From positions 1 through 46,592 of the forward strand of contig DEYT01000031.1 in the NCBI GenBank assembly GCA_002364975.1: 46,592 bases of DNA, in the 5' to 3' direction. Shown here one piece after another: positions 4,439 to 30,704 of the stretch. Within the stretch, counting starts at the first letter, position 1. Every line of letters begins with the position of its first letter. This stretch comes from Opitutia bacterium UBA3151. GTDB taxonomy: Bacteria; Verrucomicrobiota; Verrucomicrobiia; Opitutales; Seribacteraceae. The notes under the pieces were generated by a model. That model ran no database searches. It had not been told where the DNA came from and saw only the letters and a list, made by a program, of their open reading frames with translations. The position numbers were made by a program, and so were the translations under genes.

Positions 4439-5812
4439 ATGAGTGAAGAAAATAAATCCGGTTTTTTGTTAGGTGAGCGACAGGGGCAGTTCTTGGCATT
4501 CGTACTTTGTTTTGCCGGGGTTCTTACATTGGGATGCTTACTGACTTTCGTGGTCTACATGCTAAACCAAGCTTTTACCTTTTTTTCCGGAGTAATTTGG
4601 TCGCTTGCCCTTTCTGGAATGCTTGCAATTTTGCTTCGCCCGATTGTTACATTACTGGAAGAAAAAATGGGAATGGGACGATTTCTTTCTATTGTTACCC
4701 TTTATTTTTTAGTGCTTGCTACTGCTGGCTCGGCGACTTGGTTCTTGGGAGGGAAAATTATTCGGCAAACGCAAGACTTTATTGGTTCCGCTTCGGAGTG
4801 GCCTGACCGGTTGGAAGAGAAAGGTAAGGAACACTTACCACCCGAAACTTGGGAGTCAATTTCAGGCCAGTTTGAATCCTTTAAAGAATACTGGGGGACT
4901 ACCTTAGCTCCAAGTCAGGGATCTAGCCGATTGGATCTCAATGTATCCGAAAAGGAAATATATGTTACCTTGTCCATCGAGGAACGTACCACCTTTCGTG
5001 AACTGGGAGACTTGGAAAAAACAGAGTTTTTCACTTACGAGACAGAAGCTGATCGCCTTGCTTATTTAGATCAAAAGAGTTTGGAAATGAAGAACCAGAC
5101 CATGGAGACCCTCGAAAGCAAAGGGGGAGTTATTGCAGAAAAATCTGCTGAGGTTCTAAGATCCGCCTGGCTCGGTTTAATGGGTATATTTACCAAAATG
5201 ACCTACCTCGCAGTCATTCCTATTTATTTGTTCTACTTTCTTAGTTCCAACCGTAATTTACTTGAGGACTTGGAAAAAGAACTCAGATTCATATCTGCCT
5301 CGGTGCGAGAGGATATCATTTTTTTAGTGCGTGAGTTTGTAGGAATTTTGGTAGCGTTCTTTCGAGGGCAGTTACTTATTGGGTTATTGATGGGGGTAGG
5401 CTATGCCATTGGATTTAGTCTGAGCGGATTGAAGTTTGGCATTACCTTAGGTCTTTTATTTGGCTTATTAAATATTGTGCCTTATCTTGGATCAATTGTT
5501 GGAGTGATCGTGACTTTACTCGTTGCCTATTTGCAACCGGATGGAATTGCCGAGAGTGGTCAATGGAACTTATTGCTTGGATGTGGCCTTTCCTTTGCCA
5601 TTGTTCAATTGATTGAAAGTTATTACCTGACACCCAAAATTATGGGACAGCAGACTGGTCTACATCCAGTGGTGGTAATCGTTTCGATTTTCTTTTGGGG
5701 AACTGCCTTGGGAGGAATTCTAGGCATGATTTTTGGTATTCCGCTAACCGCATTTTTCATCATTGCTTGGCGACTTCTTTGCCGGAAATATTTCAATCAT
5801 TCCGCTTGTTAA
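4439..5812 (+). CDS. AI-2E (PerM/TqsA) family transporter
   Basis: Multi-TM protein; FFRGQLLI, LLNIVPYLG and ESYYLTPKIMG..GLHPVVVIVSIFFWG...GILGMIFGIP are family-typical motifs. Confidence 0.9.
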   Translation: MSEENKSGFLLGERQGQFLAFVLCFAGVLTLGCLLTFVVYMLNQAFTFFSGVIWSLALSGMLAILLRPIVTLLEEKMGMGRFLSIVTLYFLVLATAGSATWFLGGKIIRQTQDFIGSASEWPDRLEEKGKEHLPPETWESISGQFESFKEYWGTTLAPSQGSSRLDLNVSEKEIYVTLSIEERTTFRELGDLEKTEFFTYETEADRLAYLDQKSLEMKNQTMETLESKGGVIAEKSAEVLRSAWLGLMGIFTKMTYLAVIPIYLFYFLSSNRNLLEDLEKELRFISASVREDIIFLVREFVGILVAFFRGQLLIGLLMGVGYAIGFSLSGLKFGITLGLLFGLLNIVPYLGSIVGVIVTLLVAYLQPDGIAESGQWNLLLGCGLSFAIVQLIESYYLTPKIMGQQTGLHPVVVIVSIFFWGTALGGILGMIFGIPLTAFFIIAWRLLCRKYFNHSAC

Positions 5813-5865
5813 AAAATTTTGAGAGCTGTAAAATTCATTTTTTGGAGTTCATTTTTGGCACTAAA

Positions 5866-8709
5866 GTGAATAAACTCCATCTATTTTTCTTTTGTGTTTC
5901 AACTTTATTGATTCCAGATCGATTTATACTTTGTAACCAAGATATCGATCAAAATTCCATAGTGGTGACCAGTAATTGGAAAGCCAGTTCATGGTTCGGT
6001 TATTATTATGATAATGGGTCGGAATGGATTTACCATGAGGACTTAGAGTGGGTTTATCCATCTTCAGTAGATGGAAACTCGGTATGGTTGTTTTTGCCTT
6101 CGTTAGACTGGGCTTGGACGAAGCAGGAACATTTCCCCTGGATCTACTTCCATAAACTTCAGAATTGGAGATATTATGATTCTACCGGAGGTTTTTACAA
6201 TTTTGAGACCCTGAGTTGGACACCGAAAGAAGAATTTGAATTAGAGTTGAAAAATTTAGGGGGTGGAACCGGAGGGCAAGAATCCAATAGTACAACCGGA
6301 AATAATGGTACTACCGATTCGAATCAAACTTCTAGCAATTCCTTTTTATTGACGGTCAATAGCGGTACAGGAGGATCGGTGACGGGCGGTGGAATTTATT
6401 ATTCAGGGGATACGGCAACCATCAGGGCAAGCCCGGATACCGGTTATGAATTCTTAAGTTGGGTGGGTGCAACGGTTGGAGATTCGGTTGCGAAAACTAC
6501 CTCTGTAATTTTGGATCAAAACCTAAGTGTGACTGCTACTTTTTCATTGGTTGACTATACCCTCGAATTAATCGCTGGTGTGGGTGGATCGGTTACCGGT
6601 GCGGGGGTCTATGAATATGGGAAATCGGTTTCAATAAGTGCAAGTCCAAACCCAGGATATTACCTACAGAATTGGACCGGTGCTACCTTGGCAGATTCCG
6701 CTGCTTTAACAACCACGATTTTAATCGACCAAAATCATAGCCTAAAGGCCAACTTTTCACGTGTGCAACCGAGTCTTTCCATTACCCACGGATTGGGGGG
6801 TATCGTTTCTGGTGGTGGTTCTTATGATTATGATTCCAATGTTTCGATTATTGCCACCCCTGAAAATGGATATTACTTTCTCGAATGGAGTGGGGCTCAG
6901 GTAGCAAATTCAAGTGCTGCAACTACCACCATTCATTTGACCAAAGATTCAAATTTAACCGCTACTTTCGAGGCAAATTCAACAAGCTCACTTTCTAAAA
7001 TTGATCCCCATGAAATGGTCAGGCGAATGGGAAGAGGGATTAATCTTGGAAATGTCTTGAGTGCTCCAGAAGAGGGAAAATGGGCTCCTGCAGCTACGCA
7101 ACAATACTTCATTGATTTAAAAGATGCGAATTTTAGCAATGTTCGACTGCCCACCGATTTTTACGGTACCCGTACTACTGGGGATACGAGCATGTTTTCC
7201 ACTCTTTCAGGAACTTCGGCAGATTTCAATGGTTCGATGGATGATTTTGTAGTTTCCTCCGAATACCTCGACCGGATTGAAGAAATAATTACTTGGTCTC
7301 TCAATCAAGGCTTAATCACCATACTTGACTTCCATGGAGCAAATCTAAAATCAGAATTTCTGCATACTTTTAATGCAAGCAGTAGCGATTATATTGAACC
7401 AACTTCGGCTAGACGGGCTGCGGATTTAGTTAAGTTCCAATCCATTTGGCGGGCCATTGCCAATCGTTTCAAGGATTACCCACCCGAACTTCTTTTCGAG
7501 GTTGTAAACGAACCCTATTTCGAGCTTTCTGCGCAAGAAATGGATCAACTGAATGCCCTGATTATTTCCGTCATTCGGGCGACTGGTGGAAATAATGCCG
7601 ATCGAAATCTGATCCTTGTGGGTGGGGGTGAAAACTCTTACCTTGCTCCCCAACAGATTGATTCCTCTATTTTGGCATCCGACGATCAATTGATTGCAAC
7701 CTTTCATTATTATGACCCTTTTAGTTTTACTAGCTCCCAGAAAGATCAGTACGATGACAATGATTGGGGTACAGTGGAGGATATTGAAAGCATTCAAACT
7801 CATTTTGATACCGTCAAGTCCTGGTCGGAAACCAATCAAATTCCCATCTATCTTGGCGAGTTTGGAGCGGATAATGTAGGGGGTTACAATTATGGCTCGG
7901 GTACCCTACGAAAGATAAATTCCAACACCACAGGATACGCAGATGGTGGGCCAGATTCAGAATCCCGTCTTCTCTACCATCAGCATGTTGCTGAGGAAGC
8001 GATTAATCGCGGTTTTGCTTTTTCGGTATGGGATTCCGGTCCTACCTCGAATAAGACTATACATAAAAGAAATGATTCGAGCCTCACTTCTAATTTCGAT
8101 CTTTCATCGTTCGCGGTGAGTTCCTACGAAGAGCCCACGGTTACTGTGAGCACGGTGGTAGACTCGACTACTTGGGTACCCGAGATCAAAGATGCGATTC
8201 TAAACCATGGGACTTGGCCTGGATGTTACGGACCTTTGGGCGTGATCAAAAATCCCGGATTCGAATGCAGTCCGTATGATGAGGGCTGGAGCCTTAAGCT
8301 GGTTTCCGGATCGACCGCAGAAATTTCGAATGTTGGAAGTTCGATCTCCCGAACGGGTAATTCGGCCATGCAAATAAAGGTGAGTTCAGACCTTGGTTAT
8401 AACAAAGTTCTTCTGGAAAACACAGCTTTTGTTAGTGACTTTAATGGACAAAGAATCACGGTTGAATGCTGGATTAGGTCGAGTGTACCTGCTGAATTCA
8501 GAATGCAACTCAAAATTACCGAAAAGGAGGGAGTTGACTATGGCAACAAATTCCCCAGCTCTGACATTTTTTCGACCACCACGGAGTACCAAAGGTTTAT
8601 ATTCAGGCATACTGTCAGCAGCTCAATCGATGCGGTCCAATTTAAGTTGTTACTGGGAAAAACCCCGGCGACTTTTTTCGTGGATGACTGCTCTGCGTTT
8701 GTCGAATAA
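5866..8709 (+). CDS. Modular glycoside hydrolase family 5: Trp-rich N-terminal domain, three beta-repeats, GH5 catalytic domain, CBM4/9-like C-terminal domain
   Basis: Likely GTG start at 5866 (the 5695 start overlaps the upstream gene); MGRGINLGN, FEVVNEP (acid/base), TFHYYDP, IYLGEFG (nucleophile); C-terminal domain begins IKNPGFE and ends FFVDD. Confidence 0.88.
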   Translation: MNKLHLFFFCVSTLLIPDRFILCNQDIDQNSIVVTSNWKASSWFGYYYDNGSEWIYHEDLEWVYPSSVDGNSVWLFLPSLDWAWTKQEHFPWIYFHKLQNWRYYDSTGGFYNFETLSWTPKEEFELELKNLGGGTGGQESNSTTGNNGTTDSNQTSSNSFLLTVNSGTGGSVTGGGIYYSGDTATIRASPDTGYEFLSWVGATVGDSVAKTTSVILDQNLSVTATFSLVDYTLELIAGVGGSVTGAGVYEYGKSVSISASPNPGYYLQNWTGATLADSAALTTTILIDQNHSLKANFSRVQPSLSITHGLGGIVSGGGSYDYDSNVSIIATPENGYYFLEWSGAQVANSSAATTTIHLTKDSNLTATFEANSTSSLSKIDPHEMVRRMGRGINLGNVLSAPEEGKWAPAATQQYFIDLKDANFSNVRLPTDFYGTRTTGDTSMFSTLSGTSADFNGSMDDFVVSSEYLDRIEEIITWSLNQGLITILDFHGANLKSEFLHTFNASSSDYIEPTSARRAADLVKFQSIWRAIANRFKDYPPELLFEVVNEPYFELSAQEMDQLNALIISVIRATGGNNADRNLILVGGGENSYLAPQQIDSSILASDDQLIATFHYYDPFSFTSSQKDQYDDNDWGTVEDIESIQTHFDTVKSWSETNQIPIYLGEFGADNVGGYNYGSGTLRKINSNTTGYADGGPDSESRLLYHQHVAEEAINRGFAFSVWDSGPTSNKTIHKRNDSSLTSNFDLSSFAVSSYEEPTVTVSTVVDSTTWVPEIKDAILNHGTWPGCYGPLGVIKNPGFECSPYDEGWSLKLVSGSTAEISNVGSSISRTGNSAMQIKVSSDLGYNKVLLENTAFVSDFNGQRITVECWIRSSVPAEFRMQLKITEKEGVDYGNKFPSSDIFSTTTEYQRFIFRHTVSSSIDAVQFKLLLGKTPATFFVDDCSAFVE
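6343..6969 (+). repeat. Three tandem ~70-aa InlB B-repeat-like ('bacterial repeat') domains within the GH5 gene
   Basis: Repeated pattern L..G.GGSV.G.G.Y..G..V.I.A.P..GY.F..W.GA.V...TT.I.L....L.A.F occurs three times. Confidence 0.8.
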
Positions 8710-12535: not shown

Positions 12536-12736
12536 ATGACAATTGAAATTAAACTTCGTAAAGGCGAACCCATGGATCGTGCCATTCGGCGCTTGAAGAA
12601 GCGCTTGGACAGAGAAGGTGTTATTCGTGATGTTAGGGCAAAAAGATATTTTGAGAAGCCCTCTGATAAGAAGCGTAAAGCACGAAAAGTTGCTGCCTTT
12701 ACTCAAATGCTACGAACTAGATACGAGAAAATGTAG
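12536..12736 (+). CDS. rpsU: 30S ribosomal protein S21
   Basis: 66 aa; GEPMDRAIRRLKK...RYFEKPS.K.R bS21 signature. Confidence 0.97.
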   Translation: MTIEIKLRKGEPMDRAIRRLKKRLDREGVIRDVRAKRYFEKPSDKKRKARKVAAFTQMLRTRYEKM

Positions 12737-12808
12737 TCCCCTTTATCGCAATTTGCGGTTGGATTTTTTCTCGTAAGTTCTCAAATTATAGCATTAACTA
12801 ATTGGAGA

Positions 12809-14767
12809 ATGTCCCAATTAGCCAAACGCCACACCCTAAGCTTACGTCAGCAATGGAGGGTGTTTGATAAACAAAATTCATCACCAAAAGCTTACCTAGA
12901 TCTTTGTGGCAGGATGATTCAAGTAGGGGAGTTTCTTTTGGCTCACGATGTGGCTAAAGAAGGCTTAGAAAAGCATAAGAATGACTGGTCCCTTTCCCAA
13001 AAAGCGGCTCATGCTCTTTGCAAGGCAGGCTCTCCGATGATGGCCACAAAAATTTTAGAGGAACTTGTGACCTCAGGGGTACGAGATGTTGAGACTCAAA
13101 GTCTTTTGGCCAGTGCCTATAAAGATCTTTGTGAGTATTCCATTAATCCGGAGAACAAAAGTCACTACGCAGAGCTCGCAATTTTCCGTTACAAAGAGGC
13201 ATTTGTTGCTCAGCTTGAGGAAGCGGAAAGTGGAGTTGATAACTTAGATAGCCAATATTATCCATGTATCAATGTGGCTTTTATGCATTTTGTTTCTCAT
13301 AACATTCGGAAAGCTCATAAATACGCAAATTTTGCCCGGGAAATTTGTCGGACTCTGAGAGAAAGAGGGGATGCTTCTTATTGGGTTCTGGCAACGGAAG
13401 CGGAGGCAAGTTTGTTACTTGGTGAAATTGATGAAGCGGTACTAACCTACACTGGAGCCGTAAATCTTGAAGAGGCTAAACCCTCTCATATTGCCAGTAC
13501 CAGGAAGCAAGCTCTTCAAATTTCTTCCCTTTATACAGATTCGTCTATTCGGGATAAAATTGCCGCTGCTTTTCCAGTGCTGGGAATTGTGGCTTGCTCC
13601 GGTCATGTGATTGACAATTCAGGTGCCAATCGTCGATTTCCCCCTGAAGCCGAAAAAATCGCAAAGCAGAGAATCGAAGAATCCTTGGAGAGGATAGGGG
13701 CAAATTGCGGTTACAGCTCTGCTGCTTGCGGCACTGACATTTTATTTCTTGAGACTATGATTGAGAGGGGAGGGGAAACGCATATTTTCCTTCCATTTGC
13801 AAAGGATGAGTTCATTGAGACAAGTGTTAGGAGAGCTGGTGGTGACTGGGTTACAAGGTTGGAGAATGTATTGGATCACGCGACCTCGGTTCACTATGTA
13901 ACCCATGAGGGATATTATGGGGACGATTCTCTTTTTTCATTTTGTAATCAGGTGATGATTGGTTTCGCTGCGATGCGTGGAAGAGGCTTGGATGAAGACC
14001 CTCAACTTCTGGTTTTCTGGGATGGTAAACCCGGATCTGTTGGAGGTACTGGAGAACTAGTGGACTCGTGGAAGTCCGTTTTTAATGAACCTGTCATTAT
14101 AGATGCCAATGAGGTTTTGACCGATTTACCGGGGTTGAAAGCAGCAAGGGTTGTGGATGCTTCATTAGAAAGTGAAATGTATCATGATGGATTTGGTGAT
14201 GATTTGAAACCATCCCGTTCCGTGAAAACAATGATTTTTGCTGATGTTGCTGGCTTTAGTGAAATTACGGAGGATTTAACCAGTCAATTTGTGGGTGCGT
14301 TTCATGGAGGCGTTGCCCAAATGATCGATAAACTTCCCAACCAGCCTTCTTTTGTTAATACTTGGGGAGATAGTTTTTTTGCCGTTTTTGAAGATTTGGA
14401 AAGTGCATTGAAATTAGTGCTTGGAATGAGGGACTATTTTACGGATGGAAAATGGTCCGAATGGTTGCCCAATGGAAATATGGATGTGCGAATTTCAATG
14501 CATGCAGGTCCGGCATATGAAGAATTTGATCCGATTCTTAAGCGAAGAAACTTTTTTGGTAGTCATGTTAATCAAGCTGCTCGGATTGAGCCCATTGTTT
14601 TTCCAGGTTCCGTTTTCGTTTCTGAAACAGTTGCGGCTTTGATTTCTTTTGGATATGAAGAATATGATTTTGAATATGCTGGGAACATTGATTTAGCCAA
14701 AAAATATGGAACTTATCCAGTTTACATTCTACAACGGAAAGGATATTCGGATAAATTAATTTCATAG
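12809..14767 (+). CDS. TPR (TPR-S/DUF4071-like) + SLOG-like + class III adenylate/guanylate-type cyclase
   Basis: Helical N-terminus with ETQSLLASAYKD, YYPCINVA and YWVLATEAEA; middle domain SGHVID...SSAACGTDILF...LPF...FWDGKPGSVGGTG (SLOG-like); C-terminus FADVAGFS, WGDSF, RISMHAGP, FGSHVNQAARIE; GGAG RBS. Confidence 0.85.
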   Translation: MSQLAKRHTLSLRQQWRVFDKQNSSPKAYLDLCGRMIQVGEFLLAHDVAKEGLEKHKNDWSLSQKAAHALCKAGSPMMATKILEELVTSGVRDVETQSLLASAYKDLCEYSINPENKSHYAELAIFRYKEAFVAQLEEAESGVDNLDSQYYPCINVAFMHFVSHNIRKAHKYANFAREICRTLRERGDASYWVLATEAEASLLLGEIDEAVLTYTGAVNLEEAKPSHIASTRKQALQISSLYTDSSIRDKIAAAFPVLGIVACSGHVIDNSGANRRFPPEAEKIAKQRIEESLERIGANCGYSSAACGTDILFLETMIERGGETHIFLPFAKDEFIETSVRRAGGDWVTRLENVLDHATSVHYVTHEGYYGDDSLFSFCNQVMIGFAAMRGRGLDEDPQLLVFWDGKPGSVGGTGELVDSWKSVFNEPVIIDANEVLTDLPGLKAARVVDASLESEMYHDGFGDDLKPSRSVKTMIFADVAGFSEITEDLTSQFVGAFHGGVAQMIDKLPNQPSFVNTWGDSFFAVFEDLESALKLVLGMRDYFTDGKWSEWLPNGNMDVRISMHAGPAYEEFDPILKRRNFFGSHVNQAARIEPIVFPGSVFVSETVAALISFGYEEYDFEYAGNIDLAKKYGTYPVYILQRKGYSDKLIS

Positions 14768-14776
14768 GGCGATGTT

Positions 14777-16258
14777 ATGAAGCTATCACATTCCATGCAA
14801 AGCACAGCGGATATTCCTCCACCTTTTGAATCTTATTCAGGGGATGGACCCTACTCTTTTATTAGCTATGCTCACGCCGATAAGGTAAAAGTGTACAAAA
14901 CCATTCGGGGTTTCAGGGAAAAAGGGATTAATATTTGGTACGACGAAGGGATTCCCCCAGCTGGTGAATGGGTGGATGAACTTGCCCAAGCTATCAAGAA
15001 ATCTTCCTCCTTCGTCGTTTTTGTATCCCCTCGCTCGGCTGATTCCAGATATGTTCGAATGGAAGTGCAATATGCCCTAAGCGAGAATAAAGAAATTCTT
15101 ACAATTTTTCTTGAAGATACTCAACTTCCGCCCGGTCTTTCTTTGTGCCTTCAACAGTTTCAGTCCATATCCATCAAAGAGAATTATTGGGCAGAAAATG
15201 CTTGTAAAGCCTTGCTGATAAGGCAGGATTCCTACGAGTTTAATCCCCCGAAACAAAAACAACAGGAGAACGCTGTTGATGAAGAAGAAATTGATTACGC
15301 TATTCAATTGTGGTCTTCATGGAGTAAAGCCCTGGATGCTCAAAACCGGAGGTTTGAAAAGAGGCACAACCTTAAGCCAAACCCTAAATACCGAATTCCA
15401 GAAACTGTTTTTGAACCCGTAGCTCCACCTCATCCAGAGTTAATAAAAACCGCACCACCGTCACCAACCGAGGACAAATCCAATAAAACGAGACACCCCT
15501 TTGCTCTGGATGTCACGATTACAAAGCAATCGAAAAAGGAAATAGTTGAACCACAAAAGCCACACTTAAATGATTATGCTGGTACCTTTAAGTGGATACC
15601 GCCCGGGAAAATTACGATTTTGGTCCCTTACACTGATGAAAAAAGGCTCGTTCATGTAAGGGATGGCTTTTGGCTTGGTGAATATGTAGTTACCCAGTCT
15701 ACATATACAAAGATTATGGGTGCGAACCCCAGTTTTTCTGAATTAAGATTGGGTGAAGATTCCGACAATTATCCCGTAAATAATATCTCTTGGCTGGACG
15801 CAGTTTCCTTCTGTCGTGCTCTTACCATGCTTGCGAATAATGAGGGCACATTGCCCGCAAAGCATGAGTACCGTCTCCCCACTGAAGTAGAGTGGGAATA
15901 TGCATGCCGAGCTGGTTCCTTAACTGATTATTATTTTGGAGACGATCCAAGCGAACTTCACAAACACGGTTGGTTTCGCGGGAATAGCCGTAAGCAAATG
16001 CATCCGGTTGGTTTGAAATTCGCAAATGACTGGGGACTATTTGATCTTTACGGAAATGTTCGGGAATGGGTGGGTAATTCGTTTGTAAATACTCTTCTTA
16101 ATGACAGCGAACAAGATGAGTTTAGAATTAGTAGGGGGGGTGCTTACATGAAACCCGCAGTTGAGTGCAAGTCATCCTCTCGATCCACAAACTCCTTGCA
16201 TCACCGATTCCGCAACCTTGGCTTCCGGGTCGCCCTGGCACCGTCTCCAACCTTATAA
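14777..16258 (+). CDS. TIR domain + Pro-rich linker + FGE-sulfatase (SUMF1/C-lectin fold) domain protein
   Basis: FISYAHAD, IWYDEGI, VVFVSPRSADSRYVRMEVQYA (TIR with Glu96); YRLPTEVEWEYACRAG, GLFDLYGNVREW, RGG, LGFRVAL (FGE fold); starts 9 nt after the cyclase stop. Confidence 0.88.
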   Translation: MKLSHSMQSTADIPPPFESYSGDGPYSFISYAHADKVKVYKTIRGFREKGINIWYDEGIPPAGEWVDELAQAIKKSSSFVVFVSPRSADSRYVRMEVQYALSENKEILTIFLEDTQLPPGLSLCLQQFQSISIKENYWAENACKALLIRQDSYEFNPPKQKQQENAVDEEEIDYAIQLWSSWSKALDAQNRRFEKRHNLKPNPKYRIPETVFEPVAPPHPELIKTAPPSPTEDKSNKTRHPFALDVTITKQSKKEIVEPQKPHLNDYAGTFKWIPPGKITILVPYTDEKRLVHVRDGFWLGEYVVTQSTYTKIMGANPSFSELRLGEDSDNYPVNNISWLDAVSFCRALTMLANNEGTLPAKHEYRLPTEVEWEYACRAGSLTDYYFGDDPSELHKHGWFRGNSRKQMHPVGLKFANDWGLFDLYGNVREWVGNSFVNTLLNDSEQDEFRISRGGAYMKPAVECKSSSRSTNSLHHRFRNLGFRVALAPSPTL

Positions 16259-16336
16259 CAAATTTAAGATTCTTACCTGCCAGTTAGGCTTTTCCCATTG
16301 TCTTCACTGACAAAAAAATACATATTTTTGTGTTTT

Positions 16337-17824
16337 ATGAACAAAGAGTCGACAGCCCCACAACAGCCAAGCCAGAATTTGGACGGTAGTGATCAAGTTG
16401 CGGTCCGCCAAGACAAGTTACTTCGCATGCGTGAGGAGGGGTTAGACCCTTTTCTTACAAATTGGGATCAAGCCCATGTTTCAACCGAAGCGATCGGCTT
16501 GTTGCCTGAGGACGAGGAACAAGGTCCGGAAGTCTCCGTGGCTGGAAGAATTGTTGCTTTTCGACTGATGGGAAAAGCATCCTTTCTAAAAATTTTGGAC
16601 CGCTCTGGCAAAATTCAATCTTATGTTAGAAGAGATGAGATCGGTGAAGACCAATACGCGTCATTCAAGAAATTAGACCTGGGTGACTTTATTGGAATTC
16701 GTGGCCCCCTTTTCCGAACCAAGACGGGGGAGGTCACCATTCGGGCCAAAGAATACAAGTTAGTATCCAAGGCCCTTCGACCTTTACCAGAGAAGTGGCA
16801 TGGTCTAACCGATAACGAGCAAATCTATCGACAACGATATCTTGATTTGATTGTAAATGATGATTCCCGGAATCGTTTTCGTGGAAGAAGCCAAATCATC
16901 CGAGAGATTCGGGAGTTTTTTTGGAGTCGGGATTTCTTGGAGGTTGAAACTCCGATGCTTCAAGCGGTTTCAGGTGGAGCTGCAGCCCGTCCATTCCGTA
17001 CCCATTTTAATGCTTTGGATTGTGATTTTTCGATGCGGATTGCATTGGAACTTCATCTCAAGCGTCTTTTAGTTGGTGGTTTCGATCGGGTATTTGAAGT
17101 CGGTCGAGTTTTTAGAAACGAGGGCCTTTCCAGACGACATAATCCTGAATTCACCATGCTCGAAGCCTATCAAGCTTATTCAGACTACCGTGGGATGATG
17201 GAATTAACCCAGTCCTTAATCCAGCATGTTGCAGATAAAGCCATAGGTTCTTTAACCATCGAGAGAACAGAAGGGGAACCTATTGAACTTGCAGGTCAAT
17301 GGAGAGAAGCAAAATATAAAGACCTCATTATTGATGCGGTTGGGCAGGAAGATTGGTTTAATTTAGAAAAGAATGAGAAGTTAAAAAAGTGCAAAGAAAT
17401 GGGGATCGAGGTAGATCCAGAATTGGAAGATTTTGAAGTTACAAATGATGTTTTTGAAAAAGTGATTGAGCACACTTTGATACAGCCCACTTTTGTCACC
17501 CATATTCCTCGTGAGCTTTGCCCCCTTGCTAAAATTACGGAATCAGACCCCTCGACCCTCGATGTGTTTGAACTTTGCATTAACGGCCAAGAAATTGCAC
17601 CTGCTTATTCCGAGCAGAATGATCCTGATGTCCAACGGGAAGCGTTTATGATTCAGTCCGGTGAGGAAACGCAAGAACTGGATGAAGATTTTCTGACTGC
17701 ACTTGAACACGGTATGCCACCGGCTGGGGGGATGGGTATGGGCATTGATCGACTGGTAATTTTTCTAACCAATGCCGCAAACATTAGAGATACCATTCTA
17801 TTTCCTACTCTCCGTCCATCTTAG
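16337..17824 (+). CDS. lysS: Lysine--tRNA ligase (class II)
   Basis: YRQRYLDLI, GGAAARPF, FRNEG...HNPEFTMLE, GMPPAGGMGMGIDRL; ATG 16337 preferred over TTG 16298. Confidence 0.98.
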   Translation: MNKESTAPQQPSQNLDGSDQVAVRQDKLLRMREEGLDPFLTNWDQAHVSTEAIGLLPEDEEQGPEVSVAGRIVAFRLMGKASFLKILDRSGKIQSYVRRDEIGEDQYASFKKLDLGDFIGIRGPLFRTKTGEVTIRAKEYKLVSKALRPLPEKWHGLTDNEQIYRQRYLDLIVNDDSRNRFRGRSQIIREIREFFWSRDFLEVETPMLQAVSGGAAARPFRTHFNALDCDFSMRIALELHLKRLLVGGFDRVFEVGRVFRNEGLSRRHNPEFTMLEAYQAYSDYRGMMELTQSLIQHVADKAIGSLTIERTEGEPIELAGQWREAKYKDLIIDAVGQEDWFNLEKNEKLKKCKEMGIEVDPELEDFEVTNDVFEKVIEHTLIQPTFVTHIPRELCPLAKITESDPSTLDVFELCINGQEIAPAYSEQNDPDVQREAFMIQSGEETQELDEDFLTALEHGMPPAGGMGMGIDRLVIFLTNAANIRDTILFPTLRPS

Positions 17825-25391: not shown

Positions 25392-26510
25392 ATGATATGT
25401 CCAAAATGTGATTCTGTAACTAAATACAGAGACGCGTTTTCCAATTTAAAACTGGAATGTTCTTCCTGTAGTTATGTATATGCATTGGACCCAAAACAGA
25501 TGGGCTTTTCAGACCGACGCGTATGGAAAGTGGCTGAAAAACTTTCCAAAGGCGGGCGTTACTTTACTGAGCAACAACTTGCATGTGCCTGTCTTTCAAA
25601 GAGTGAAAGAAAAATTACCACGGGAACGCTCATTGGAGCAATCTGTGGATTGATTGCTTCATTATTGTTAACATTCAATGGAATCCCTATCCATGAATCG
25701 ATTATTATCGGAGTGGTGATAGGGCTTATTATCGGAGTATGCCTTACCAATTCTGGAGAAAAAGCCAAGCTTTGGACGGGAGTTCAGACCTATTGCTATA
25801 AAAAAGGTCACCAGTTTCTAATCACCCCTAAAAATGCCGAAGCAATCATTGGAAGGTTGGAAAAGAAAAACAAACTTACCTTTCAGGATTTTAATCCTGA
25901 TAAAGCCTTGATTGTGGATGACTTGGAATTCGTAGCACTATTATTACTTAACAACTTTCACAGAGACAGTAATTGTCTGATCCTCAGTGTGAATCATAAA
26001 AGTGGCCCTTTTTATGAATATTTCCTAAAACGCCAGCAATCCGAAAATAAACTACTTGTTTTTGCAGTGCATGACGGAGGTGCAGAGGAGGAGTTGATGG
26101 TTTCCAGAATCCAGAAAGACCCCAAATGGATAGGATGCGAAGAAATTACAGACCTTGGTTTGAGCAGAGAAACATTAACTAACTATAAAAATGGCACTTG
26201 GATAAATGAGGGAACGGGGTCTGTGCAGACCCACTCTCCCAAAAAGATAGATGAAAAATATCAAGGGTCCTGGCTCTTTCCGGTCGACTGCATTCCACCT
26301 GAAAAACTTAATCTATCTTTGAATGCCTGTATGGTAGGTGGATTTGAAATGCTGTCGCCACAAATGTTTGGGGCCATCGGCATGGCACCATCGACAGCTT
26401 CAAACAACACTGCTGGCGGCGATGGTTCATATTATGGCAATAGTGGCAGCGGTGCATCTTTTTCTTCATCAGATTATGGTGGCGGTGCAGGCTTTGATGA
26501 CTTCGGGTGA
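25392..26510 (+). CDS. Hypothetical membrane protein: N-terminal Zn ribbon, TM hairpin, TOPRIM-like alpha/beta domain, Gly/Ser-rich tail
   Basis: CPKC...CSSC; two TM helices; ALIVDD..., LVFAVHDGG and ITDLGL resemble TOPRIM-like elements (tentative); tail GGDGSYYGNSGSGASFSSSDYGGGAGFDDFG. Confidence 0.7.
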   Translation: MICPKCDSVTKYRDAFSNLKLECSSCSYVYALDPKQMGFSDRRVWKVAEKLSKGGRYFTEQQLACACLSKSERKITTGTLIGAICGLIASLLLTFNGIPIHESIIIGVVIGLIIGVCLTNSGEKAKLWTGVQTYCYKKGHQFLITPKNAEAIIGRLEKKNKLTFQDFNPDKALIVDDLEFVALLLLNNFHRDSNCLILSVNHKSGPFYEYFLKRQQSENKLLVFAVHDGGAEEELMVSRIQKDPKWIGCEEITDLGLSRETLTNYKNGTWINEGTGSVQTHSPKKIDEKYQGSWLFPVDCIPPEKLNLSLNACMVGGFEMLSPQMFGAIGMAPSTASNNTAGGDGSYYGNSGSGASFSSSDYGGGAGFDDFG

Positions 26511-26554
26511 ATTTTTCTCAATTTCGATATTCTTAACCCAAGAAAAATAAGGAA

Positions 26555-28237
26555 ATGTTTGGATTTGCTGGTGTCATTTCAAAAAAGCAACTGGAGAATC
26601 GAATCCGGCAGCAGAGTCAATTTTGCCTGGACGAATTCAAGTTTTATTCAAGCTTTAAGATAATTTGCGGTGAAAAGCCTGTAAATGATCAGAAATTTTT
26701 ATTTGCCGATGGTTCCTTACTACAAATCTTAGGACTTTTTTTTTCAGACTTTACCCAGTCTGAATCACTTCATCATTTCGAGGAAGTTGCAGACGGTGCT
26801 TTCACAGCTTTAGCGGTAACTCCCAATGAATTTCGCATTTATGCAGATCCATGCGGATGGCGATCAGTATATTTTCGGGAAGAAAATGGCTTCTTATATC
26901 TCGCATCTAACATAAGATATTTCCGGGAGTATTTTGGCTTACTCCTGGAACCCGCTACTGAAAGATCGATCGATTTCCTATGCACCAGTTTTATTCCCGG
27001 TCAAGAGACCCTAACAAGAAATGTTTTTCAACTACCTATGGGTCATGTACTCGAATGGAAGAGCGAAAATAATTCGACCATCAGAGATTACTGCAAGTAT
27101 GACACTATCCCCAAAGTGCAAAATACTAGTGCCGAATCAGCAAAAGATCTACACTCTATTTGCCTCGAAAACACTGAAAGAATAAAAAAATCCAGTGGAA
27201 AAAGCGAATGCACAGTTTTCTTGAGTGGTGGATTGGACAGCACTTGTGCCCTAGCTCTAGCGATTGAAATATTCGGACTAAAAAACATAAAAACTATTTC
27301 AGTCCATTTCGGTGGCCATTTGCCCAATGAAAATGAATACATTGATGAAGCCGTTAAATACTTTGGTTGCAGTCATCAATATCTTGAAATTTCCCCTGAT
27401 TCATTCCTCTCGGAAATGGAGACAATCTATACATGGATTGATGATCCCATTGGCGACCCGGTGGTAATGCCTAATTATATGATGAACCGTGTCATTGATC
27501 CTAAAGAACAACTTGTGATTACTGGTGAGGGAGGAGATCCCTGTTTTGGTGGTCCAAAAAATGTATTCATGACCAACTCAATGGAATTCAGTGGTTTATA
27601 CGAAAATAGTGATAACAACGAGTTTCTTGCTACTTGCTACCTTGAGAGCTTCAAGAGAGCTTATGATGATGCCGCTCAGATTAGCCGATTCAATGAAGAG
27701 TCTTTCGAAAGTAGATTAAATGAACTTCAATCCAACCTTAATTTACACCTTACAAATCAAAATTGGGATAGCTTCCTCGATCGTTTGTTATTTGCAAATA
27801 AATACCTCAAATCTAATTCCCTGATCTTACCAAAAGTACAAAAGACCACGCAGCCATTTTCCCGGTATTCATTATCTCCACTTTTTTCGAGAAAAGTCAT
27901 CGAATTCTGTGCCCGAACTCCAATCGAAATAAAATATCCGAAACTTCAGGAGAAACATATTCTTAAACGTGCTTTCCTAGAAAAAATTCCTCAATCTATA
28001 ATCGACAGAGAAAAGAGTGGCATGAGAGTCCCCATTCGCTTCTGGCAAGGTAACAAAATAAAGGCGTATAACCGAAAAATACTTTTGCGTGAGAATAAAA
28101 AATTAACTTCGAAATTTTTTAACATAAAAGAAGTTAAAAATCTTTTAAAGCATCCGCGTTCTAGGCAAGGTCTTAAAACATGGATGCTTACCACTTTTAT
28201 TTTAACTGCTAAAAATTTATATGAGCCCGAAAGTTGA
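26555..28237 (+). CDS. Asparagine synthetase B-like amide ligase lacking the N-terminal catalytic Cys
   Basis: MFGFAG in place of MCGIAG; DGAF and DPCGWRSVY (Ntn domain remnants); FLSGGLDS PP-loop; TGEGGDPCFGG; EKHILK; REKSGM. Confidence 0.88.
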   Translation: MFGFAGVISKKQLENRIRQQSQFCLDEFKFYSSFKIICGEKPVNDQKFLFADGSLLQILGLFFSDFTQSESLHHFEEVADGAFTALAVTPNEFRIYADPCGWRSVYFREENGFLYLASNIRYFREYFGLLLEPATERSIDFLCTSFIPGQETLTRNVFQLPMGHVLEWKSENNSTIRDYCKYDTIPKVQNTSAESAKDLHSICLENTERIKKSSGKSECTVFLSGGLDSTCALALAIEIFGLKNIKTISVHFGGHLPNENEYIDEAVKYFGCSHQYLEISPDSFLSEMETIYTWIDDPIGDPVVMPNYMMNRVIDPKEQLVITGEGGDPCFGGPKNVFMTNSMEFSGLYENSDNNEFLATCYLESFKRAYDDAAQISRFNEESFESRLNELQSNLNLHLTNQNWDSFLDRLLFANKYLKSNSLILPKVQKTTQPFSRYSLSPLFSRKVIEFCARTPIEIKYPKLQEKHILKRAFLEKIPQSIIDREKSGMRVPIRFWQGNKIKAYNRKILLRENKKLTSKFFNIKEVKNLLKHPRSRQGLKTWMLTTFILTAKNLYEPES

Positions 28238-28931
28238 TTTTTTTTACAAAGAAGAGTTTTCATCCTTTTTCAATGATCTGCACCGCGGAAATTTTGGTCG
28301 AGCATGCCCTGATCAATCAGACAAACCGCATGATTTCCCCGGACGAGGTGGTACAGTTTTTTGCGTCGCGACGGGTAATCAAACCGTCAGGATTACAAAT
28401 GAGGTATCCAAGTATGAAATGCAGCCTGGTATGTACGGGGCAATTCAGACGCCCGCCAAAATAGAAGGCGGAATGTTTTGGTATGTTTTTGTGGAGGGGT
28501 ATGAATGCCTAAATGGAATCGGGGGTCCCCTTGAGCATACTGGTAGGCTGCGCTATATTGACGGTTGCACGGACTCTCTGATTCTACCACCTGTAATCAA
28601 AGGAGACCCATGCCTTAATCTTCTCTACTTCCCCCCTTCCACGGATCAGACTTTTCACACGCACCCAAGTTGTCGAATTGGCCTAGTCGTTTCCGGTCAC
28701 GGTATCTGCCATGAAAAGTCTGGAGAAACTATTCTTGAAGAAGGTTTAGCCTTTTATCTTCCCAAGGATGCCATTCACCGCTTCGAGACAAAAAGTGAAT
28801 CTCTTCGGGTTGTTGCCTTCCACCCGGATAGCGACTTTGGACCCGAGCACGATTTCCACCCAATGATCAACAAGACCATGGTGGATGGAACCTCAGCACG
28901 CCATATCGAAGCCATTCGCACCAGTTTATGA
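28221..28931 (+). CDS. Cupin-domain protein (metal-binding, probable bicupin)
   Basis: QTFHTHPS.RIGLVVSGHG and LEEGLAFYLPKDAIHRF cupin motifs; overlaps the upstream gene by 17 nt. Confidence 0.82.
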   Translation: MSPKVDFFYKEEFSSFFNDLHRGNFGRACPDQSDKPHDFPGRGGTVFCVATGNQTVRITNEVSKYEMQPGMYGAIQTPAKIEGGMFWYVFVEGYECLNGIGGPLEHTGRLRYIDGCTDSLILPPVIKGDPCLNLLYFPPSTDQTFHTHPSCRIGLVVSGHGICHEKSGETILEEGLAFYLPKDAIHRFETKSESLRVVAFHPDSDFGPEHDFHPMINKTMVDGTSARHIEAIRTSL

Positions 28932-29986
28932 ATAAGCAATTTCTTTTTCTTAATAAGTTTGCCGCTATTAATCGGTCTGAGATTTTTGACTTAAGTTCCG
29001 ACAATTATGTCAATCTCGTGAAATTTTTCGAAACTGGAGCAATCGACAGAACGCACACTTTAGTTTCTGGTTTCAAATACAATGTTATAGATCCTATTCC
29101 CGAGATTACATCCTCTCGCCCTCCCATTGATGAGCTTATGCTGGAAACTGCTCGGGAGATTCTGAAGCTTGCAGAGAAAAAAAAGCAAAAAATTCTTGTT
29201 CTATGGAGCGGAGGAATCGACTCGACTGCAGCATTGCTAGCACTTCTTGAAATATGTGGTAAGAATTCAACTGACATCATTAGCCTTGGTTCTTCCCATG
29301 GATCATTCGTGGAATTTCCAGAATTCGGGAAGTACCTAATGGAACAAAACATTGAAATTCTCCCGATGGTTCATCCAGTATCGAAATACCTTCCGCAGGA
29401 TTATATCGTTGTTACTGGAGAGCATGGTGACCAGTTGTTCGGCAGTGACAAGATGTTACCACTTGTCGACTCCGGTTTGGGAGACCTGCCATACAAAAAA
29501 TATTTGCCGTTCTTCATTGCCGAAAAGCTCGGCAATATTAAACAAGTATCGCACTTGGTGGAATACCTTGAGGCAATCATTGAAAAATGCCCATTTACCA
29601 TCACAGATATCTGTCAATGTCTCTGGTGGTTTAACTTCGTATTAAAATGGCAGCAAGTTTCATTGCGCATTCCGGTATGGTCGGGAAAAAATGTGAAACA
29701 GGTTTTTGATCAATGCGAACATTTTTACAGAAACGAAAAATTCCAGCTTTGGTCTCTTGCACGGGAGCGTAAGAATCCCCACACAGTGGATAGATATAAA
29801 GCAGAACTGAAAGAATTTATTAATCAAAGATTTGTATGCGAAAAATATTTTCTTCGTAAAAGAAAAGAAATAAGCCTGCGTCCAAGAGCCGAGAAAAAAT
29901 GGTGGGAATTAGCAAGACATCGGTGGAGCTTTGTTATGGATGAGACATGGAATCTCGAGAAACAGATAATCCCTCACTACCTGTAA
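28928..29986 (+). CDS. Stand-alone AsnB synthetase-like N-type ATP pyrophosphatase (PP-loop)
   Basis: VLWSGGIDST and VVTGEHGDQLFGS; no Ntn domain; ATGA overlap with the cupin gene. Confidence 0.8.
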   Translation: MNKQFLFLNKFAAINRSEIFDLSSDNYVNLVKFFETGAIDRTHTLVSGFKYNVIDPIPEITSSRPPIDELMLETAREILKLAEKKKQKILVLWSGGIDSTAALLALLEICGKNSTDIISLGSSHGSFVEFPEFGKYLMEQNIEILPMVHPVSKYLPQDYIVVTGEHGDQLFGSDKMLPLVDSGLGDLPYKKYLPFFIAEKLGNIKQVSHLVEYLEAIIEKCPFTITDICQCLWWFNFVLKWQQVSLRIPVWSGKNVKQVFDQCEHFYRNEKFQLWSLARERKNPHTVDRYKAELKEFINQRFVCEKYFLRKRKEISLRPRAEKKWWELARHRWSFVMDETWNLEKQIIPHYL

Positions 29987-29988
29987 AA

Positions 29989-30704
29989 ATGAATGCATTG
30001 AAAGAGCCTGACCTATTTTCACCAGTTATCGAAAGACTTTTAGCCACTGTGGTAATATTGAGCGTCATCTTTTATGTTCTGGAGGTAGAATATGGGGGCT
30101 CTGCCCATAGTCTAGAAGGGCACACCTTTTGGTTGTGGATGGAATGTGTGGTTGCAGGCATCCTAACAATAGAAATATCTCGCCCGGTGGAAAAAAGGAG
30201 GAAAAGAGTATCCCTACAGTCGGTTAGGAGTGATAGATCTAGCATCCGTAATCCCCTTTTGGCTGGGTTTCATTGTTCCCCCTGCATGCTTGGGATTGAT
30301 TCGATCCATGCGTGTCCTGCGTTTACTAAAACTCTACCGGCATAGCGGGGTAATGCGAGTATTTGTTCATGCATTTCTCCTATCTAGAAAGCACTTAATG
30401 GGGATGTTTCTGATCGTTTTTATTTTGGTTTATTTTGGTGCAGTGGGAATTCGTGAAATCGAAAGGGATGATCAACCGGATGTTTTTGGCAGTTTATTCA
30501 ATTCTATCTGGTGGACCATTGTCACACTGATGTCGGTGGGTTATGGACACAGTTCCAGTAACTCCGATTGGAAAAGGATTTGCCCAGGTGGATATGGTAT
30601 TTTGCTTGGGATTGACTGCAGCATTTATTGGGATTGTGGGGAGCAATGTGTATACACAGGTACAGGAAATCAAAGACGAGAAAGATGATAACAACCAAGA
30701 GTAA
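29989..30704 (+). pseudogene. 6-TM voltage-gated K+ channel, two frameshifts
   Basis: S4 LIRSMRVLRLLKLYRH; pore WWTIVTLMSVGYG; removing one A at 30173-30175 restores TIEYLARW; adding 2 nt near 30547 restores GYGDTVPVTPIGK through to TAA at 30702-30704. Confidence 0.88.

Follow-up and report, generated by a model that had tools for sequence, protein, structure and literature searches.

The genes between rpsU and lysS of this marine Opitutales genome raise the question whether a TIR protein and a nucleotide cyclase form one signalling pathway, in which direction a signal would pass between them, and whether it would serve defence. The window, i.e. the whole stretch of DNA that was analyzed, comprises 46,592 nucleotides. 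Gene 1 (12809-14767, 652 aa) and gene 2 (14777-16258, 493 aa) lie on the plus strand with a gap of 9 nt, and open reading frame coordinates together with Pfam confirm this co-oriented, rpsU/lysS-flanked arrangement, as given in a preliminary description made from the letters alone. That description had assigned a TPR, a SLOG-like domain and a class III cyclase to gene 1, and a TIR with Glu96 plus an FGE/C-lectin-fold domain to gene 2. Both assignments hold, the former by Pfam and an AlphaFold2 model, the latter by Pfam and alignments; the TPR is refined to a TPR-S domain and the lectin-fold part to a non-catalytic relative of TvpA. The features are as follows.

12536..12736, plus strand: rpsU (ribosomal protein S21), upstream neighbour, by Pfam
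12809..14767, plus strand: gene 1, 652 aa, TPR-S, predicted YpsA-type SLOG and class III nucleotide cyclase, no membrane helix
12827..13588, plus strand: TPR-S helical domain, residues 7-260, by Pfam PF20308 and a fold match to ASK1
13577..14131, plus strand: predicted YpsA-like SLOG domain, residues 257-441, by AlphaFold2 model alignment and conservation
14210..14743, plus strand: class III cyclase, residues 468-645, by Pfam, structural alignment and conservation
14777..16258, plus strand: gene 2, 493 aa, TIR, variable linker and lectin-fold (FGE-like) domain, no membrane helix
14822..15211, plus strand: TIR domain, residues 16-145, by Pfam and alignments; Glu96 codon at 15062-15064, Tyr92 four residues upstream
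15212..15568, plus strand: linker, largely disordered, 28% mean pairwise identity, one conserved helix at about residues 173-192
15569..16246, plus strand: C-type-lectin-fold (FGE-sulfatase-like) domain without the FGE cysteine pair, by Pfam; TvpA is the closest solved relative
16064..16237, plus strand: end of the lectin domain, residues 430-487, near-invariant; by alignment its counterpart in TvpA is the C-terminal part varied by diversity-generating retroelements (DGR)
16298..17824, plus strand: lysS, downstream neighbour, by Pfam and synteny

Residues 7-645 of gene 1 are wholly assigned to TPR-S, SLOG and cyclase, a SIR2 domain is absent, and the AlphaFold2 model has a mean pLDDT of 84.7. 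Pfam TPR-S (PF20308) matched residues 53-159 with an E-value of 2.8e-11 (44.3 bits, cut-off 27.6), and the modelled domain aligned with the central regulatory region of ASK1 (5ulm) at Z 20.3 and rmsd 2.9 over 229 positions. Five of its residues (K105, Y128, N155, W192 and E199) were kept in 94-99% of 152 distant homologues. TPR-S domains are predicted sensors of NAD-derived signals, and hence the SLOG may be neither the sole nor the main receptor of this protein.

The preliminary description had let its proposal stand or fall with a SLOG fold in the middle domain. Profile searches with this domain against Pfam and PDB returned no match. On the predicted model the fold is of YpsA-type SLOG: residues 257-441 aligned with B. 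subtilis YpsA (2nx2) at Z 18.8 and rmsd 2.8 over 161 of 178 residues. DUF1273/YpsA clusters, at 0.90 and 0.84, were also among the ESM Atlas neighbours of the region, which we treat as a lead. G265-H266, D269, R276, G308-x-D310, E315 and R350 were conserved in 97-100% of the 152 homologues, including the GxD/E motif (G308 100%, D310 99%) and first-loop H266 (97%). A GxD/E motif and an aromatic residue in the first loop are described for the YpsA clade (PMC6459960, in excerpt); judged by motif and position, G308-x-D310 would correspond to G53/E55 of YpsA.

The C-terminal part matched Pfam Guanylate_cyc (residues 474-640, E 1.7e-11), and cyclases dominated the Foldseek matches of gene 1. Its fold is closest to CyaB (Z 20.7), above the PycC structures (Z 14.8-16.1), and the PADLOC model of PycC gave a marginal match (E 0.048 over 61 residues). 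Metal ligands D479 and D521 and the transition-state residue R592 were found in 99-100% of the 152 homologues, and K631 is kept along with R592. Asn588 is present here, while only 39% of the homologues have Asn at this position; the Ma1120 cyclase is active without it (PMC4215837). Neither the adenylyl nor the guanylyl base-selecting pair is found, as the site that is Lys in adenylyl and Glu in guanylyl cyclases is N517 and the second base-selecting site is N581. The Lys/Asp pair of adenylyl cyclases (cf. PMC4215837) is thus absent, which we count against a relay that ends in this enzyme. The likeliest guess for the product is cAMP. In M. tuberculosis, the adenylyl cyclase Rv1900c has Asn in place of this Lys.

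In gene 2, Pfam TIR_2 covered residues 28-145 (E 7.7e-21). Glu96, at the catalytic position, was invariant in 34/34 aligned orthologues and 102/102 database homologues, and position 92 was Tyr or Phe in 90 of the 102. Every cyclizing TIR tested carries an aromatic residue at the equivalent site (bioRxiv 10.1101/2022.05.07.491051), and Tyr92 is thus compatible with a cyclic TIR product. Neither a Pfam cNMP_binding match nor a membrane helix was found in gene 2. The linker evolves fast compared to the flanking domains. When long fused forms of the TIR region were sought, no match scored, which is weak evidence, and a predicted complex of gene 1 (residues 10-645) with the TIR (residues 12-155) scored 0.00, informative neither way. 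An apparently TIR-less gene 2 in one genome (G363) was rejected, being an assembly gap of Ns.

The lectin-fold domain matched Pfam FGE-sulfatase (residues 291-486, E 2e-32) and TvpA (Z 16.2, rmsd 3.4, 189 residues), the latter on a low-confidence model of gene 2 with pLDDT 63 and values under 50 for residues 426-480, the region of the lectin pocket. Formylglycine-generating catalysis was rejected: compared to human FGE, the domain has a single Cys (C464), lacks the Cys-x4-Cys pair and carries a loop that is three residues shorter. Residues 430-487 match a TvpA segment that we take to be its variable binding site. Here, no other part of gene 2 is as conserved as this face, whose mean identity of 87% compares with 66-68% for the remaining domain and the TIR and which is more conserved than lysS. 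R450, K459, R469, H476, R477 and R479 are near-invariant, and the face is recognizable even in homologues of 37-38% overall identity. Such conservation implies one fixed ligand. We also considered a diversified DGR target and rejected it, since the region is near-invariant and the 92%-complete genome contained neither a copy of the template repeat nor an RVT_1 match.

Within the marine Opitutales group the two genes are single-copy core genes. Among 50 close loci (a set that includes the own locus and counts some genomes twice), 46 have gene 2 immediately after gene 1; two stop at a contig edge and two are without gene 2. Genes 1 and 2 were present in 39/44 and 38/44 genomes of the genus, respectively, and in 14/14 good genomes, the gene 1 SLOG in 9/9 other sampled genomes of the family, and the gene order was the same in 3/3 sister-genus loci having downstream sequence. 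The pair keeps a fixed, single-copy position among the housekeeping genes dnaE, rpsU and lysS. Both genes are under strong purifying selection, with a pN/pS-type ratio of 0.02-0.07 in all folded domains against a 98%-identical relative (lysS 0.05). Some losses count against a relay. Two group genomes have lost gene 2 at the locus and kept gene 1, both with a TIR of the same clade elsewhere; G359, a 95%-complete genome, encodes gene 1 and gave not a single Pfam TIR_2 match; and none of six homologue stretches examined from other Opitutales families, one of them without downstream sequence, contained a TIR.

The locus is no defence island. Pfam recognized no defence family among the scanned ORFs of the window, and PADLOC, which covered the two genes only, reported the TIR as a partial match to its ThsB and SAVED-TIR models. 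RNA-library contigs from three runs (12541-13079, 12545-12923 and 12672-12822) run continuously from rpsU into gene 1. Parts of both genes were covered in 4/4 runs examined from three studies, a result to be read with possible DNA carry-over, with 4 of the 16 runs found and without a silent control stretch for comparison; none of the contigs listed bridges gene 1 and gene 2. Scans for promoters (12 against 10.5 expected) and terminators (6 against 6.3) were at chance level, and a hairpin at 12745-12759 was accordingly discounted as a regulatory signal.

The wider family of gene 1 comprises 2933 clusters at 50% identity (E up to 1e-30), and nearly all of the best 150 carry the three domains. 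A literature search, with Burroughs 2015 and Burroughs and Aravind 2020 outside its scope, returned nothing on a combination of TPR-S, SLOG and cyclase or of TPR-S and SLOG; Burroughs and Aravind (2020; J Bacteriol 202:e00365-20) are said to have predicted TIR/TPR-S systems. We searched 85 distant loci with gene 1 homologues for TIR ORFs in six frames. Forty TIR ORFs lay within 400 nt of the homologue, at 38 of the 85 loci, while only four were found at 0.4-2 kb, two at 2-4 kb (141 kb of flank) and none at 4-8 kb (156 kb). Recurrence of the pair, on which the preliminary description had also staked its proposal, is hence borne out by close and distant loci alike. The adjoining TIRs belong to at least six separate clades and occur across separate branches of the gene 1 tree (built with FastTree only, with an unresolved backbone and long-branch warnings), and the TIRs of Opitutales and those with a Lys/Arg-rich tail form one clade. 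Their accessory domains differ (Lys/Arg-rich tail, TPR, Sel1, DUF4062, GH25, lectin), all 40 partner TIRs examined retain the catalytic-position Glu, and no Pfam cNMP-binding domain was found in them. The family-wide module is gene 1 plus any TIR, and only in this lineage is the partner a TIR with a lectin fold. With unrelated clades and accessory domains and a common Glu, the partners are most simply united by a shared product. This survey favours a TIR signal that acts through SLOG/TPR-S on the cyclase over the reverse order. It also holds counts that speak against a relay: of 66 distant loci whose downstream sequence reaches 900 nt or more, 31 have no adjacent TIR; an adjacent TIR occurs in 20/41 clusters at 70% identity and in only 5/17 at 50%; and a single clade supplies 23 of the 85 loci. 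In addition, the Lys/Arg-tail partners have Asn, not an aromatic residue, at the equivalent of position 92, so that either the partners do not all make one and the same cyclic product or the aromatic rule fails.

We consider the pair a likely two-step relay, with a probability of roughly one half. The domains, the residues at catalytic positions, the linkage, the purifying selection and the recurrence with unrelated TIRs are observed, and we infer each binding and catalytic step, the direction, the on or off effect and the cellular role. The lectin-fold domain would likely bind one fixed cytoplasmic ligand and thereby cluster the TIR, and the clustered TIR would cleave NAD+ to an ADP-ribose-type signal. 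This signal would likely bind the TPR-S and/or SLOG of gene 1 and switch the cyclase, whose cyclic nucleotide may act on the general cNMP-binding proteins of the cell; the genome encodes five. From the relay of the preliminary description the direction from TIR to cyclase is retained, while the SLOG may not be the only reader and the lectin partner turned out to be local to the lineage. In this lineage, the pathway likely serves physiological regulation and not suicide defence.

An anti-phage system of the same direction would need a lectin-fold domain that senses a conserved phage component and a cyclic nucleotide that brings about dormancy or death via an effector elsewhere. TIR, SLOG and TPR-S are parts of immune systems, lectin folds on TIR and STAND proteins have been proposed as invader sensors (PMC10907252, in excerpt), TIR-NACHT, nSTAND1-TPR and DUF4062-NACHT-WD40 genes occur at distant loci, and the partial ThsB and SAVED-TIR matches fit as well. 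We nevertheless find it rather unlikely, given the fixed single-copy site in 14/14 good genomes, the low amino-acid change with a binding face more conserved than lysS, the reverse transcriptase and template repeat missing from the 92%-complete genome, and a window whose scanned ORFs show no defence family. A defence role, which had been offered as one option, is thus not supported for this core, single-copy and slowly evolving pair, which has no killing effector and no recognized defence genes nearby. It is quite unlikely that the SLOG/TPR-S part is itself an NAD/ADPR-processing enzyme, or is switched by contact with a TIR that serves as adaptor or regulator and not as signal source. Both enzymes and sensors are known among SLOG domains (PMC9503650), and this one retains H266, D269, D310 and E315. 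In BcTir/BcTpr the TPR protein, not the TIR, is the reported NADase, and the complex of both was reported as necessary (bioRxiv 10.1101/2023.05.26.542521, in excerpt), which counts against the relay. However, one shared interface is less likely with at least six partner clades, and the Glu kept in 40/40 partner TIRs is reportedly missing from BcTir (same source).

The order could also be reversed as in Pycsar, gene 1 sensing a stimulus and its cyclic nucleotide binding the lectin face, so that the TIR becomes an NAD-depleting effector. A near-invariant Arg/His-rich face, recognizable at low overall identity, is what a pocket for a small anion might look like, and the base-selecting residue of the cyclase is unusual. 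Still, this order is very unlikely: the lectin partner is lineage-restricted, the other partners carry unrelated domains of which none binds cNMP, the two nucleotide-sensor domains of gene 1 would be left without a source of ligand, and, by Z score, ordinary cyclases fit the fold better than those of Pycsar, whose PycC model matched marginally. Finally, both genes might have entered a housekeeping operon in a single insertion and then been inherited without a functional link. Linkage within the family is a single ancestral event, and about every second distant locus, as well as two group genomes, has gene 1 with no TIR beside it. In contrast, TIRs concentrate directly beside gene 1 across separate gene 1 branches and come from unrelated clades, and the 2.6 Mb genome holds two TIR genes, which renders a pair without functional link extremely improbable.

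If the relay from TIR to cyclase is real, ADP-ribose signalling would control cyclic-nucleotide signalling; two messenger systems would be joined and bacterial TIR signalling would gain a physiological role. We know of no characterized bacterial TIR signal that ends in anything other than a killing or arresting effector. Tentatively, and with more doubt than confidence, we imagine a widespread non-immune pathway in which one cyclase hub, gated by TPR-S/SLOG, receives an NAD-derived messenger from many different TIR receptors. The Opitutales would then possess a domesticated, core circuit linked to a ribosomal operon, in which a lectin that abandoned diversification reads one fixed intracellular ligand and the Asn-site cyclase may make a non-standard cyclic nucleotide. 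With two genes and both products cytoplasmic, this version is well suited as a test case for the large gene 1 family, which appears uncharacterized in the literature searched. It could reveal the signal-binding domain, TPR-S or SLOG, with bearing on the regulatory domain of ASK1, which shares the TPR-S fold, and the ligand of the invariant FGE-like lectin face.

By definition the pair is neither Thoeris nor Pycsar. This mismatch had been pointed out before and is upheld by a TIR without cNMP-binding domain and a SLOG fused to a cyclase instead of SIR2. With Pycsar and Pucsar it shares a class III cyclase gene next to a TIR gene (bioRxiv 10.64898/2026.08.12.744502, in excerpt), but the TIR here has neither cNMP-binding domain nor membrane helix, the cyclase resembles CyaB and Rv1900c more than PycC in its fold and is fused to two sensor domains, and the direction is likely opposite. 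DGR-diversified sensors, TvpA and putative antigen sensors of multicellular bacteria, have the same C-terminal fold after an N-terminal effector such as a TIR (PMC10907252, PMC7159879, both in excerpt); in gene 2 the corresponding region is near-invariant instead of variable, and the 92%-complete genome yielded no retroelement. The YpsA family shares the fold, the GxD motif and the aromatic or His residue of the first loop, whereas the SLOG here sits between TPR-S and cyclase and gives no sequence-profile match to YpsA. Adenylyl/guanylyl cyclase is among the YpsA-family architectures or neighbourhoods named in a figure legend (PMC6459960, Figure 1), so that a link between YpsA and cyclases is in some form already published.

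A survey lists 29 putative types of Thoeris (bioRxiv 10.64898/2025.12.03.692087, in excerpt, also for the following). Type VIII and BcTir/BcTpr (bioRxiv 10.1101/2023.05.26.542521, in excerpt) likewise place a TIR gene beside a TPR-scaffold protein. The type VIII effector ThsI, a CMP-hydrolase with a TPR, is activated by cADPR, and a role of this TPR in TIR signalling was predicted by Aravind and colleagues; as we read the citation, it would be the Pfam TPR-S. The output here is a nucleotide cyclase and not a CMP-hydrolase (deoxyribohydrolase), TPR-S and enzyme are separated by a SLOG, the TIR has a lectin fold attached, and the pair is core and outside a defence island. For Thoeris of any type, the catalytic-Glu TIR is present with the invariant E96, while the only recognized enzyme domain of the partner is a class III cyclase rather than a killing or arresting effector, and housekeeping neighbours conserved across the family take the place of defence-gene enrichment. 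Type I Thoeris shares a catalytic-Glu TIR beside a SLOG-bearing enzyme and the logic of TIR signal, SLOG sensor and enzyme; the SLOG of its ThsA binds 3'cADPR. Compared to ThsB and the SIR2-SLOG protein ThsA, the SLOG here best matches YpsA, SIR2 is absent, and the task of the enzyme would be second-messenger synthesis, not NAD depletion.

The two co-oriented genes of the preliminary description are present as open reading frames separated by 9 nt:

12809-14767, plus strand: gene 1 (652 aa), with a TPR-S domain (residues 53-159, Pfam), a SLOG-like middle domain and a class III cyclase domain (residues 474-640, Pfam)
14777-16258, plus strand: gene 2 (493 aa), with a TIR_2 domain (residues 28-145, Pfam), a fast-evolving linker and an FGE-sulfatase-like lectin-fold domain (residues 291-486, Pfam)

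The order at the locus is dnaE, rpsU, gene 1, gene 2, lysS, and the GC content of the pair is close to that of the remainder of the window. Closest relatives of the stretch are Opitutia/Opitutales genomes (top identity 98%), and the sequencing runs that contain it are marine metatranscriptomes. Contigs from RNA libraries covered parts of both genes in all four runs examined (three studies), and a contig reaching from rpsU into gene 1 was present in three runs. Since such a contig need not equal one transcript and DNA carry-over is possible, this is weak evidence for transcription of the pair. No defence family was recognised among the scanned ORFs of the window. Upstream of dnaE, a GH5 cellulase-like protein with three InlB B-repeat domains (5695-8709) is found at this place in only some relatives. 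A cluster of lower GC content (25392-29986; 0.36-0.43) contains a cupin and an asparagine-synthase-like gene alongside two ORFs for which Pfam gave no match. Two short, overlapping ORFs at 29947-30688, the second matching positions 70-196 of the 241 of an ion-transport profile, are possibly a frameshifted potassium-channel gene.

An AlphaFold2 model of gene 1 (65-row alignment, mean pLDDT 84.7) was compared with 48,161 solved chains. Residues 7-260 resembled the central regulatory region of ASK1 (Z 20.3, rmsd 2.9, 229 aligned), and residues 462-646 resembled CyaB (Z 20.7) and Rv1900c (Z 20.1). The SLOG-like fold proposed for the middle domain was recovered in the model, where residues 257-441 matched the SLOG protein YpsA (Z 18.8, rmsd 2.8, 161 aligned). 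At sequence level this domain had no match in Pfam or PDB, and its language-model neighbours provide a lead to DUF1273/YpsA. Among 152 homologues (27-38% identity) all three domains keep polar residues: K105, N155 and E199 in TPR-S, H266, D269, R276, G308-x-D310 and E315 in SLOG, and D479, D521, R592 and K631 in the cyclase. Asn517 is 91% conserved and the second base-selecting site is variable; according to passages on these sites in PMC4215837, the Asn517 position holds Lys in adenylyl and Glu in guanylyl cyclases. With these residues the cyclase looks active, and its product is not readable from sequence. For gene 1 and gene 2 alike, hydropathy gave no convincing sign of a membrane helix (maximum over 19 residues 1.7 and 1.1, respectively).

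In gene 2, Glu96 indeed occupies the catalytic position of the TIR and is invariant in 34/34 and in 102/102 homologues. The C-terminal domain has the expected FGE/C-lectin fold, and its nearest relative, both in sequence and in fold, is TvpA. Catalysis of the FGE type was ruled out, as the FGE cysteine pair is absent. The last 58 residues are the most conserved part of gene 2 (mean pairwise identity 87%, compared with 66-68% in the TIR and the remaining lectin domain), and their non-synonymous divergence was lower than that of lysS in 8/8 comparisons. They align with the end of TvpA, which we take to be its hypervariable binding site. The genome, 92% complete, yielded neither a template repeat nor a reverse transcriptase. 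Conservation of the lectin end, together with this negative result, suggests that the domain binds a single, fixed ligand, in contrast to the lectin sensors of PMC10907252, which diversify. Three TIR-FGE proteins of 37-47% identity (P0386-P0388), two of them named as Opitutales, retain the invariant lectin end motif.

In this lineage the pair has the character of a domesticated core module. Within the genus, gene 1 was found in 39 and gene 2 in 38 of 44 genomes, with 14/14 among good genomes, and both are nearly always single-copy. Among 50 close loci, a set that includes the own locus and counts some genomes twice, gene 2 comes directly after gene 1 in 46; of the other four, two are cut off by a contig edge, while L021 and L033 run directly to lysS. 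The genomes of these last two, which lost gene 2 from this locus, still encode elsewhere a GYF-TIR protein whose TIR belongs to the gene 2 clade. The sister genus has the same gene order in 3/3 loci with downstream sequence, one with an N gap across the TIR. Compared with the nearest relative, beyond which synonymous sites are saturated, the folded domains have non-synonymous/synonymous ratios of 0.02-0.07. With the SLOG profile, all nine other genomes sampled from the family gave a match, compared with only 17/201 across the order. Two gene 1 homologues (L041 in genome G022, L137 in G231) are stop-interrupted or split into two frames, by assembly error or decay.

A mobile GYF_2-TIR cassette also occurs in the genus (loci L152, L154, L155, L156 and L160), fused to differing C-terminal parts: membrane helix with FGE and Ig-like domains, 3-keto-disaccharide hydrolase, or a repeat domain. 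In genome G003, two overlapping frames encode the GYF-TIR part and the FGE part separately. Locus L153 (842-2401, genome G007) encodes a single polypeptide that combines GYF_2, a TIR belonging to the clade of gene 2, and a class III cyclase; this cyclase is of ordinary type, unlike that of gene 1.

When 1.84 billion representatives were searched with a gene 1 profile, 2933 clusters matched at E up to 1e-30; of the 150 best matches, almost all extend across the three domains. We compared 85 distant loci, namely five from Verrucomicrobiota genomes and the best 80 of 559 confirmed metagenome matches, for which the ranking criterion was similarity to a protein attributed by its source to a spirochaete. 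Excluded were the own locus, two duplicates, one split gene and one cyclase-only match. The pairing recurs outside this genome, as an adjacent TIR was found in 37/85 loci, in 35/66 with at least 900 nt downstream, and in 20/41 and 5/17 clusters at 70% and 50% identity. A broader profile revealed 40 TIR ORFs within 400 nt of a gene 1 homologue (38 of the 85 loci), four at 0.4-2 kb, two at 2-4 kb (141 kb) and none at 4-8 kb (156 kb); being made from partner TIRs, it favours near ones, and most near ORFs were Pfam-confirmed while only some far ones were Pfam-scanned. In a quick tree (SH-aLRT support only) the partners separate into at least six TIR clades, and they carry a long Lys/Arg-rich tail, TPR, Sel1, DUF4062 (with an nSTAND1-TPR gene next) or GH25. 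All 40 keep the catalytic-position Glu, and Pfam found a cNMP-binding domain in none.

The Lys/Arg-rich tail (120-290 residues, histone-H1-like) occurs in one large clade of homologues source-named spirochaetes (L051-L073 and L084, e.g. L068:8951-9760), joined to a TIR that groups with the TIR of gene 2. This gene follows the cyclase in 20/20 loci of the clade with room downstream, and its tail might attach to nucleic acid and bring the TIR domains into clusters. An RyR domain is added in 14 of 19 long gene 1 homologues scanned (L074, L081, L087, L101, L102, L104, L106, L108, L109, L115, L121, L122, L126, L128), N-terminal in 13 and C-terminal in L121 and protein P0119; at L074 the next genes encode a further RyR protein and a DUF4062-NACHT-WD40 protein. 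Further contexts (L078, L082, L124, L090, L100) include a RelA/SpoT-domain gene directly downstream (L078:4526-5713), a C-terminal HATPase_c_2 fusion (L082) and TIR-TPR genes at a distance of roughly 700-800 nt (L090, L100).

The common factor of these unrelated, Glu-bearing TIRs is most simply their product. Two gene 1 domains are predicted to bind TIR products. According to bioRxiv 10.64898/2025.12.03.692087, the SLOG of type I Thoeris binds 3'cADPR, and cADPR activates a TPR-bearing effector in type VIII. We therefore favour a relay from the TIR to gene 1 (probability about 0.7). The lectin domain would bind its fixed ligand, the TIR would produce an ADPR-type signal, and binding of this signal by TPR-S and/or SLOG would change cyclase output. 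A cNMP could then reach the genome's five cNMP-binding proteins (L141-L145; contigs C166, C111, C71 and C60), which include fusions with glutaminase, a mechanosensitive channel (MscS), a receiver domain and a probable transporter (probable Na/H exchanger); Pfam reported no CRP-like HTH partner among them. The genome holds three cyclases besides gene 1.

A physiological role for this relay has about an even chance. The same direction serving against phage is unlikely: the pair had been put forward as a signalling or defence candidate, and the signalling half stands as the favoured relay, while the defence half is not supported for this locus, where neither a defence island nor a killing effector was recognised. 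For an enzymatic SLOG, or direct contact of the TIR with gene 1, BcTir/BcTpr is a precedent; set beside partners from several TIR clades, we consider this improbable. The reverse order, with the cyclase upstream of the TIR, could draw on the basic and invariant lectin face and seems more doubtful still, the partner TIRs having no recognised cNMP-binding domain. Obligate pairing is counted against, because about half of the loci have no adjacent TIR, none of six gene 1 homologues in other Opitutales families has one, and, while four of five genomes tested encode TIRs elsewhere, one 95%-complete genome has none (Pfam TIR_2). That the two genes are functionally unlinked is very improbable; the pair is real and conserved, and its genes are in all likelihood functionally coupled.

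As previously proposed, the pair matches neither Thoeris nor Pycsar. On the input side it would work like Thoeris types I and VIII. It does not belong to Thoeris, because the SIR2 of type I, the CMP-hydrolase of type VIII, a killing effector and a defence island are all missing, and it is not Pycsar/Pucsar, because a cNMP-binding TIR is absent. Parts of the module are already anticipated in the literature. The preprints bioRxiv 10.64898/2025.12.03.692087 and 10.1101/2023.05.26.542521 credit TPR scaffolds beside TIRs, YpsA-Tpr assemblies included, to Burroughs and Aravind 2020, and the Figure 1 legend of PMC6459960 includes a cyclase among YpsA contexts. In the literature searched, no paper named TPR-S, SLOG and cyclase together, and primary papers may already depict this architecture. 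New from this locus are the core-gene status, an all-cytoplasmic TIR partner and a lectin face with a putative fixed ligand. The pair represents a putative new form of second-messenger signalling by TIRs, one in which a cyclase would provide the output.
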